A stretch of DNA of 64,000 bases, from sequence record ON871820, one strand, 5' to 3'. This DNA comes from Escherichia phage vB_Eco-B1.1. Numbering within the stretch: the first letter of the stretch is position 1; each line of letters begins with the position of its first letter. The notes under the pieces are model-generated. The model saw only the letters and a list, made by a program, of their open reading frames with translations. It did not search any database and had not been told where the DNA came from. Below, one piece after another: positions 397-793 of this stretch. Position numbers and translations under genes: made by a program.

Positions 397-793
397 TTTA
401 TTGGAGAGTCACTGCCTTAGTGTGAAGTTAAAACGAGGAGCCGTCGAACTGTCTGATTAATGATTTGCGAATCATTATAGTTTTAAGACCCCGGCAGTTT
501 TACGGTGTACCTCTTGAATGTTATTTTATAGCGGCAAGTGCATGCTACCCCGAGGTGATGGCTAATCGGGAGTACGCCTCAAGGCCTATATATCCATCAG
601 TATATATCTTATCCTCGAGAAATCGAACCCGGAACCTTTAAGCTAACGGTGTGCAACAGATAAGAGCTATAAGGTATGATGACGGGTTTATGGTTATCCT
701 GGTCGTTAAATATTCAAAAACCTATGTTCCCCTTGAGGGCTTGCGCAGGCAATGCCAATAAGTCCTGCATTTTCATTTAAAAGAGAATTTATA

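Follow-up and report, generated by a model that had tools for sequence, protein, structure and literature searches.

A four-way-junction RNA domain and a conserved pseudoknot in the spacer between genes rIII and 30.9 of T4-like phages

Comparative analysis of the intergenic spacer between genes rIII and 30.9 of Escherichia phage vB_Eco-B1.1 (sequence record ON871820) shows that it is a chain of predicted structured RNA modules on the plus strand and not protein-coding DNA. One of these modules, at positions 525–673 of the analyzed stretch of 64,000 nucleotides (further referred to as the window), is shown by covariation to be a self-contained RNA domain with a compact predicted plus-strand fold under strong constraint. 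The domain is an optional cassette carried by about 400 enterobacterial phages of the T4-like group and, as judged from the sequences and models compared here, it is a new RNA family of these phages, absent from Rfam.

T4-type phages are the best-studied bacterial viruses, and as candidates for therapy they are widely used against Klebsiella, Enterobacter, Shigella and E. coli. In the roughly 400 carrier genomes the domain is either unannotated or mis-annotated as small proteins. Its absence from the reference phage T4 is probably the reason why it has been overlooked. Close relatives that differ only by this cassette are natural knock-outs, and thus the function of the domain is directly testable. 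The spacer also reveals a conserved pseudoknot ahead of gene 30.9 in T4 itself.

The rIII–30.9 spacer

Over bases 1–1500, the window shares 99.7% identity with Shigella phage pSs-1 and 99.3% with many other Tequatrovirus isolates, and the studied gap is the rIII-to-gp30.9 intergenic spacer of a Tequatrovirus, on the plus strand. The original prediction described positions 397–793 as a relatively GC-rich segment lacking open reading frames (ORFs) of 60 or more amino acids. Both the ORF list and a separate scan bear this out for 397–751 on either strand, the longest ORF there being one of 58 aa that starts with TTG (465–641). The 72-aa ORF at 752–970 is gp30.9 plus an upstream in-frame ATG; according to homology to T4 gp30.9, the true start is the ATG at 794. 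Such a gap was also said to be unusual for this genome, and it does rank fourth by length among the ORF-free stretches of the 64 kb, after the tRNA cluster, which is the first, and two stretches located just 3' of that cluster. The GC content of the spacer is indeed elevated (41.6% vs 36.2% for the window), but the excess is modest, given that 8.5% of 397-bp segments are equally GC-rich, and it comes mostly from positions 530–666 (48% GC).

All genes neighboring the spacer are on the plus strand, and a scan for promoters and terminators yielded no signal of either kind inside 397–793. The spacer belongs to an early and late transcription unit of the plus strand. Upstream of rIII, positions 1–10 of the window read TATAAATAAT, in agreement with the T4 late-promoter consensus TATAAATA; hence late synthesis of the spacer RNA is conceivable as well. 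Further downstream, each of the short early genes 30.9, 30.8 and 30.7 has a terminator-like or stem-loop element after it, together with a strong σ70-type promoter (974–1053, 1382–1444), for example, TTGACA-18-TAAAAT at 1382–1411. This arrangement of promoters and stem-loops is typical of T4 hyperplastic regions.

The features of the locus are listed in Table 1.

Table 1. Genes, RNA modules and helices of the rIII–30.9 locus (positions in the window).
Feature	Position	Strand	Evidence and comments
rIII, lysis-inhibition accessory protein	148–396	+	phrog_1457, E 4.7e-44; aligns with T4 rIII; upstream boundary of the spacer
Module U, extended irregular stem-loop	434–513	+	MFE fold; the 458–477 hairpin forms its tip; also in T4
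Four-way-junction RNA domain, 149 nt	525–673	+	Covariance model match at 530–666, 166.5 bits; absent from T4
P0, closing helix uniting the domain ends	525–532 / 666–673	+	4–8 bp in 35 of 35 distinct copies
Arm 1	533–586	+	P1, internal loop and P2; first predicted on the MAFFT-only alignment
P1	533–535 / 584–586	+	
Conserved 8x6 internal loop	Between P1 and P2	+	AAGUGCAU / CUCAAG
P2, long bulged helix	544–555 / 562–577	+	8 of 12 pairs compensatory
Kissing loop, 6 bp	556–561 with 594–599	+	P2 apical loop UGAUGG with P3 loop CCAUCA
Arm 2: P3 hairpin	587–593 / 600–606	+	99.4% paired; 3 of 7 pairs compensatory; 6-nt kissing loop
Arm 3	607–665	+	P4 leads into a three-way junction with P5 and P6
P4	607–613 / 659–665	+	100% paired; 3 of 7 pairs compensatory
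P5	615–618 / 623–626	+	Loop GAAA at 619–622; 100% paired; 3 of 4 pairs compensatory
P6	627–631 / 647–652	+	Nearly invariant 15-nt loop; 99.1% paired; 2 of 5 pairs compensatory
J6/4		+	Sequence GCAACA
Module A, H-type pseudoknot	675–727	+	S1 679–686/698–706; S2 689–693/721–726; A-rich loop 3 at 707–720
Module B, hairpin CCC-UUGA-GGG followed by conserved CUUGCG	729–745	+	Invariant alignment block, T4 included; judged by eye
Hairpin GCAGG/CCUGC just 5' of the gp30.9 ribosome-binding site	745–768	+	MFE fold
gp30.9, 58 aa, very basic	794–970	+	phrog_1427 (function unknown), E 2.3e-31; T4 gene 30.9 homologue; downstream boundary of the spacer
Intrinsic terminator, end of the rIII/RNA/30.9 transcription unit	974–995	+	9-bp stem and T-run; terminator annotation in phage JB75

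Covariation and structure of the domain

RNAalifold, applied to an alignment of 15 sequences constructed by MAFFT only, predicted 39 base pairs, 16 of them with compensatory changes. The covariance model was built from this alignment, and the P2–P3 loop-loop interaction was added by inspection. The alignment of 23 distinct sequences was fitted to the model, which is a bias favoring the structure. In these sequences, the 44-pair structure including the kissing loop is 99.4% paired; compensatory changes occur at 23 of the 44 pairs (74 cells), a level reached by none of 500 shuffles. As a register control, the partners were slid by 1–3 columns, and then 32–42% of cells were paired and two to five pairs were compensatory. 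The MAFFT-only prediction, which is independent of the model, and the failure of the slid registers argue that the fitting bias does not account for the signal.

The kissing helix is 100% paired in the 23 sequences, with compensatory changes at three of its six pairs (CG in 16 and UA in seven sequences; GC in 18, AU in three and UA in two; GC in 20 and AU in three). For the closing helix P0, the comparison of 35 distinct copies gave 87% of paired cells vs 24–48% in shifted registers, with three or four pair types at positions 2–5. The more distant copies, those from Cronus (80% identity), EcS1 (70%) and locus L058 (101 bits), were the source of variation for the covariation test, and the divergent EcS1 and L058 copies keep every helix. 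In the strength of its covariation support, the domain equals well-validated RNA families.

G-U pairs are frequent (e.g. GU in 12 and UG in 20 sequences at two of the pairs) with almost no A-C cells, and therefore the RNA strand is the plus strand. The same asymmetry rules out an RNA made from the minus strand. The GNRA type of the loops and the orientation of the neighboring genes also speak for the plus strand.

Since the MFE z-scores are not significant (−1.2 for 520–680), single-sequence thermodynamics would have missed the domain. The energy of the covariation structure is −35.2 kcal/mol, within 3 kcal/mol of the MFE structure (−38.2 kcal/mol). A structured non-coding RNA was one of the options named in the original prediction, and it is strongly supported, by way of the 525–673 domain and the 675–727 pseudoknot, neither of which had been identified there. 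The self-complementary stretches mentioned in passing are real and proved to be the main feature of the spacer.

Helices P0, P1, P3 and P4 join with zero linker bases, and thus make a perfect four-way junction. Many unpaired bases of the domain are invariant, and those of the junctions and loops are nearly invariant across genera. P5 is usually capped by a GNRA loop: most copies have GAAA and some have GUAA, whereas a few have UAAA or UAAU. A search for further tertiary pairs among the unpaired columns yielded nothing robust. Inspection by eye did not reveal a canonical kink-turn in the internal loop between P1 and P2, or covariation in favor of an AAGG/CCUU pairing.

Coding potential

The segment could also have been the remnant of a decayed inserted gene, as suggested initially, or a small unannotated protein gene, and we consider this hardly credible. 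A small gene might be expected from the 58-aa TTG ORF at 465–641 and from several records that place "hypothetical protein" coding sequences (CDSs) here. However, this ORF has no match among the PHROG protein families. The homologues contain stops in all six frames, the exception being PG7, a single copy with one stop-free frame. The copies are 134, 137, 138 and 146 nt long, the differences not being multiples of three, and the variable columns are distributed over the codon phases as 25/25/21, that is, with no codon periodicity. A small gene is thereby refuted for the core, and these observations together with the compensatory pairs led us to reject the decayed gene as well.

GenBank CDSs lie over the domain or the spacer in MH333064 (CPT_Mineola_216), MH355584 (JB75_0063A), MZ234042, PV390659, ON229909 and other records. 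They are named "hypothetical protein" or "glycogen branching enzyme" and have no support from frame conservation; those overlying the domain are best regarded as spurious.

Distribution and alleles

A blastn search with the extra block retrieved 407 phage records with one copy each. The carriers belong to many genera of Tevenvirinae and infect Escherichia, Shigella, Yersinia, Klebsiella, Enterobacter, Citrobacter, Serratia, Erwinia and Edwardsiella. In every case inspected the block sits between rIII and 30.9. Within Tequatrovirus, there are roughly 190 carriers and 600 non-carriers.

The T4 spacer is 244 bp long and lacks 524–676, both flanks being 93–100% identical to the window; at the insertion point T4 has GAATGT immediately followed by GAATGATG. 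The block absent from T4 coincides with the domain, and thus the cassette is one self-closed RNA domain. In some close relatives this point is occupied by a third allele, namely a hairpin cassette about 45 nt long, CTATCACGCGTCAGAAAAAGGTTATCTGTCTAAGTCGTGGTTG (locus L031, about 1875–1920), also found in loci L033, L037–L039, L042, L044 and L046, and its loop shares GGUUAUC with the loop of the pseudoknot. With at least three alleles among close relatives, the spacer is not the uniformly conserved, unremarkable one that would have refuted the original prediction.

The core of the domain is 93–95% identical to the copies from Mineola, PEi20, Merlin and PG7. In the same four comparisons the DNA identity is 71–77% for rIII and 67–87% for 30.9, and the rIII proteins are 63–76% identical. 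A part of this identity between genera could reflect recent cassette exchange rather than selection.

The covariance model matched 21 of 50 rIII loci from IMG/VR and 13 of 16 metagenome loci, with scores from 101 to 173 bits and always on the rIII strand. The domain is present in 21 of the 38 loci with the rIII–30.9 order, where the spacer length is 120–416 nt throughout, and is missing from all 12 loci that lack this order. When 20 core-less loci (T4 and 19 rIII loci) were searched with the model filters switched off, nothing scored above 11.5 bits. The metagenome and IMG/VR scans produced T4-like phage contigs only, plus three matches by chance (L019, L091 and L092), which were rejected by the covariance model.

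Other modules of the spacer

In the alignment of 17 sequences, the pseudoknot (module A) is 82.7% paired vs 28–52% in slid registers. It has 39 compensatory cells, compared to 17.5 ± 2.9 in shuffles, none of 500 reaching 39. Four of the five pairs of stem S2 are compensatory, and the module is also present in T4. In Mineola and PEi20 module A precedes the four-way-junction domain, whereas in the window, Cronus, Merlin and EcS1 the domain comes first. As the order varies between genera, the modules are independent units.

The S2 sequence of the Tequatrovirus type, also seen in T4, is UAUGG/CCUAUG. It is one base off the canonical 11-nt receptor of the GAAA tetraloop (UAUGG/CCUAAG). This is probably a coincidence, since T4 has the receptor-like sequence but lacks P5 with its GAAA cap.

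With its H-type topology and A-rich loop 3, module A resembles the preQ1-I aptamers (RF00522), which are small H-type pseudoknots with an A-rich 3' tail, but no Rfam match was obtained in this comparison, and the stems and loop 3 of module A are much longer. Known autogenous translational operators of T4 are the pseudoknot in the gene 32 mRNA and the operators of gene 43 and regA. Module A resembles them as a structured leader element of a gene that encodes a small nucleic-acid-binding-like protein in a T4-type phage, although there is no relation in sequence. By this analogy, the pseudoknot is a better candidate for an operator or stability element of 30.9 than the four-way-junction domain; in the 30.9 message, it is more likely module A and the hairpins kept by T4 that serve as the actual leader or operator and as stability elements. 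That gp30.9 might bind module A is pure conjecture.

Module B is conserved across genera, T4 included; its stem varies, being GCCU/AGGC in Cronus and CCUC/GAGG in L025. The position of the 745–768 hairpin is occupied in other genera by a longer stem, GGGAGC...GCUCCC. A match of the DUF2815 RNA from Rfam at 745–768 is at the chance level (14.5 bits, E 7.4).

A perfect 8-bp hairpin (taatgatt-tgcg-aatcatta) had been noted at 453–476. The hairpin is real, but its position is 458–477, and it forms only the tip of module U, a stem-loop less striking than the domain and the pseudoknot. A perfect hairpin of 8 bp arises in 74 of 2000 dinucleotide-preserving shuffles (3.7%). This one is conserved in T4 and retained through compensatory changes in locus L046. 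The region 434–513 shows a few compensatory changes among close relatives: in module U, CCGU/ACGG is replaced by CCAU/AUGG in L034 and L043, the stem is changed in L037 and L046, and the apical hairpin, in L046.

Comparison with known RNAs

The Rfam scan proposed along with the original prediction (Rfam 15 at the gathering score, the whole window) produced no match overlapping 525–673. The domain also remained unmatched at E≤1 when all 4227 covariance models were searched against 3 kb, and at E≤10 with lax filters and 411 nt, the riboswitch and self-cleaving ribozyme families (hairpin, VS, hammerhead, twister, pistol, hatchet and HDV-like) included. Weak matches to Atu_C8 (at the 30.9 terminator), mir-126, MIR4221 and SNORD34 are at the chance level. 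ARAGORN, used to search for tRNA and tmRNA, found 11 tRNAs, all at 58687–59701 and none in the spacer; the junction of the domain is linker-free, and there is no 3' CCA. As for host counterparts, blastn gave no match at E≤1 in 5,426 E. coli genomes, and a conserved 20-mer had no exact match in 185,579 bacterial and archaeal genomes. The literature searched by locus, topic and sequence contained no description of the domain, although it may have been listed in a bulk catalogue, such as the survey of 10,000 viral RNA candidates (PMC10690425).

Several known RNAs resemble the domain in architecture. Like the aptamers of the lysine and purine riboswitches, it has a closing helix, a multi-helix junction, adjacent arms that kiss, and conserved junction bases. 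In the lysine aptamer, the L2–L3 kissing loop is also 6 bp long. On the other hand, the domain differs from both aptamers by its linker-free four-way junction, the lack of a conserved expression platform, and the lack of similarity at the level of sequence or covariance model. In a generic comparison with riboswitches, a conserved aptamer closed by a helix is present (P0 and the conserved junction bases). No expression platform was found: the sequence after P0 varies, there is no terminator in 397–793, and the ribosome-binding site is at least 120 nt away. With the natural hairpin ribozyme the domain shares a linker-free four-way junction and adjacent arms brought together for a tertiary contact, but this contact is made by base-pairing of loops in the domain and by two docked internal loops in the ribozyme. 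We regard these likenesses to aptamers and the hairpin ribozyme as architectural resemblances, not memberships.

Orphan structured RNAs of phages include the manA and wcaG motifs of T4-like cyanophages, GOLLD and ROOL (PMC2864571), and manA RNA, which is shorter than 200 nt, self-assembles into cages (bioRxiv 10.64898/2026.07.01.735769). All these RNAs and the domain are phage-borne, strongly covarying, optional among relatives and of unknown function. Unlike them, the domain occurs in phages of enterobacterial hosts, in single copy at one fixed locus away from tRNA genes, and it does not match their Rfam models.

Promoter-early stem-loop (PeSL) cassettes of T4-type phages, reportedly described by Arbiol et al. 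in 2010, are said to combine an early promoter with one stem-loop. Both PeSLs and the domain are short non-coding modules shuffled, gained and lost between T4-type genomes. However, the domain is a 149-nt multi-helix RNA, and no σ70-type promoter was called in 397–793, such promoters being called downstream (1025–1053 and 1382–1444).

Possible function

The explanation that we prefer, with a confidence somewhat short of even, is that the domain may be a co-transcribed, autonomous accessory module that binds a conserved partner, and not a switch of gp30.9. It would be made within the rIII–30.9 transcript, as own signals for starting or ending transcription are absent, would fold independently of the neighboring modules, and would recognize a partner conserved across hosts or phages, which might be a protein, an RNA or a small molecule. 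The unpaired bases of junctions and loops hardly vary across genera, which suggests that the three-dimensional fold is precise and the partner conserved, whereas the loss of the domain in many phages points to a conditional, non-essential role, such as host-specific fitness or counter-defence. Autonomy is suggested by the exact absence in T4, three alleles at one point, the variable order relative to the pseudoknot, and again by the lack of own transcription signals. At the same time, the element has never been found away from the 30.9 leader, which would also fit a role in cis; the MFE z-scores are unremarkable, a fraction of the identity may come from cassette exchange, and no robust extra tertiary pairs were found.

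A regulatory leader was another option of the original prediction, and the segment is indeed the 5' leader of gp30.9. In such a role in cis, the domain would be a riboswitch-like or protein-binding element that adjusts how the message of 30.9, or that of rIII upstream, is translated or how stable it is; this seems to us rather unlikely. In its favor, the domain is located within the 30.9 leader, on the strand of that gene, and occurs only where 30.9 follows rIII; it lacks its own promoter and terminator; the closing helix, kissing arms and conserved junction bases follow the design of the purine and lysine aptamers; and the spacer has at least 120 nt in all 38 rIII–30.9 loci, those examined in detail being structured. 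In a variant of this scheme, the small basic gp30.9 could be an autoregulatory ligand. The binding module is preferred because no conserved platform lies beside P0 (the next element is the pseudoknot in the window, but Mineola and PEi20 have a different hairpin there, and Cronus has a long one), and because phages without the domain, T4 and many relatives among them, keep a near-identical 30.9 gene and its leader. Moreover, the 30.9 start is at least 120 nt from the domain, and the Rfam riboswitch families gave no match at E≤10.

Processing of the rIII–30.9 transcript by a small ribozyme, self-cleaving or otherwise catalytic, would be suggested by analogy with the natural hairpin ribozyme, as the domain has a linker-free four-way junction with side-by-side arms and many invariant unpaired bases. 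Self-cleaving ribozymes are common in phage genomes. We nevertheless hold this to be improbable: no ribozyme family of Rfam matched at E≤10, there is no sign of a cleavage site, and the adjacent arms are joined by ordinary Watson-Crick pairing of loops rather than by docking of internal loops.

The conservation might also have nothing to do with RNA, being a trace of recent horizontal spread of a DNA-level element or a neutral mobile cassette, for example, a recombination module or a protein-binding DNA site. Presence or absence at one precise point, alternative cassettes, short shared flanks (TATTTTATA / GTATGATG), and between-genus identity that in some cases exceeds that of the flanking genes agree with such a cassette. 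Still, this is very improbable, since 23 pairs are maintained by two-sided changes, the G-U pairs are sensible on one strand only, the long-range loop-loop interaction covaries, every helix survives in EcS1 and L058, and the copies have no common terminal repeats beyond the covarying P0.

A bolder and doubtful reading is that the domain could be the founding member of a new functional RNA class in T4-like phages of enterobacteria. It might be a ligand- or protein-binding RNA directed against host defence or hijacking a conserved host machine; or the 6-nt loops might kiss between molecules to produce a self-assembling multimer like the phi29 pRNA or the manA cages.

ORF-free stretches near the tRNA genes

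The eleven tRNA genes of the window are those for Gln, Leu, Gly, Pro, Ser, Thr, Met(CAT), Tyr, Asn, His and Arg; T4 has eight tRNA genes. Three further long ORF-free stretches are located just 3' of this cluster, at 60071–60447, 61385–61659 and 63622–64000. They have no Rfam match at the gathering score, and the pSs-1 record carries no annotation there. These stretches may hold further stable RNAs; in T4, RNA C and RNA D map close to the tRNAs.
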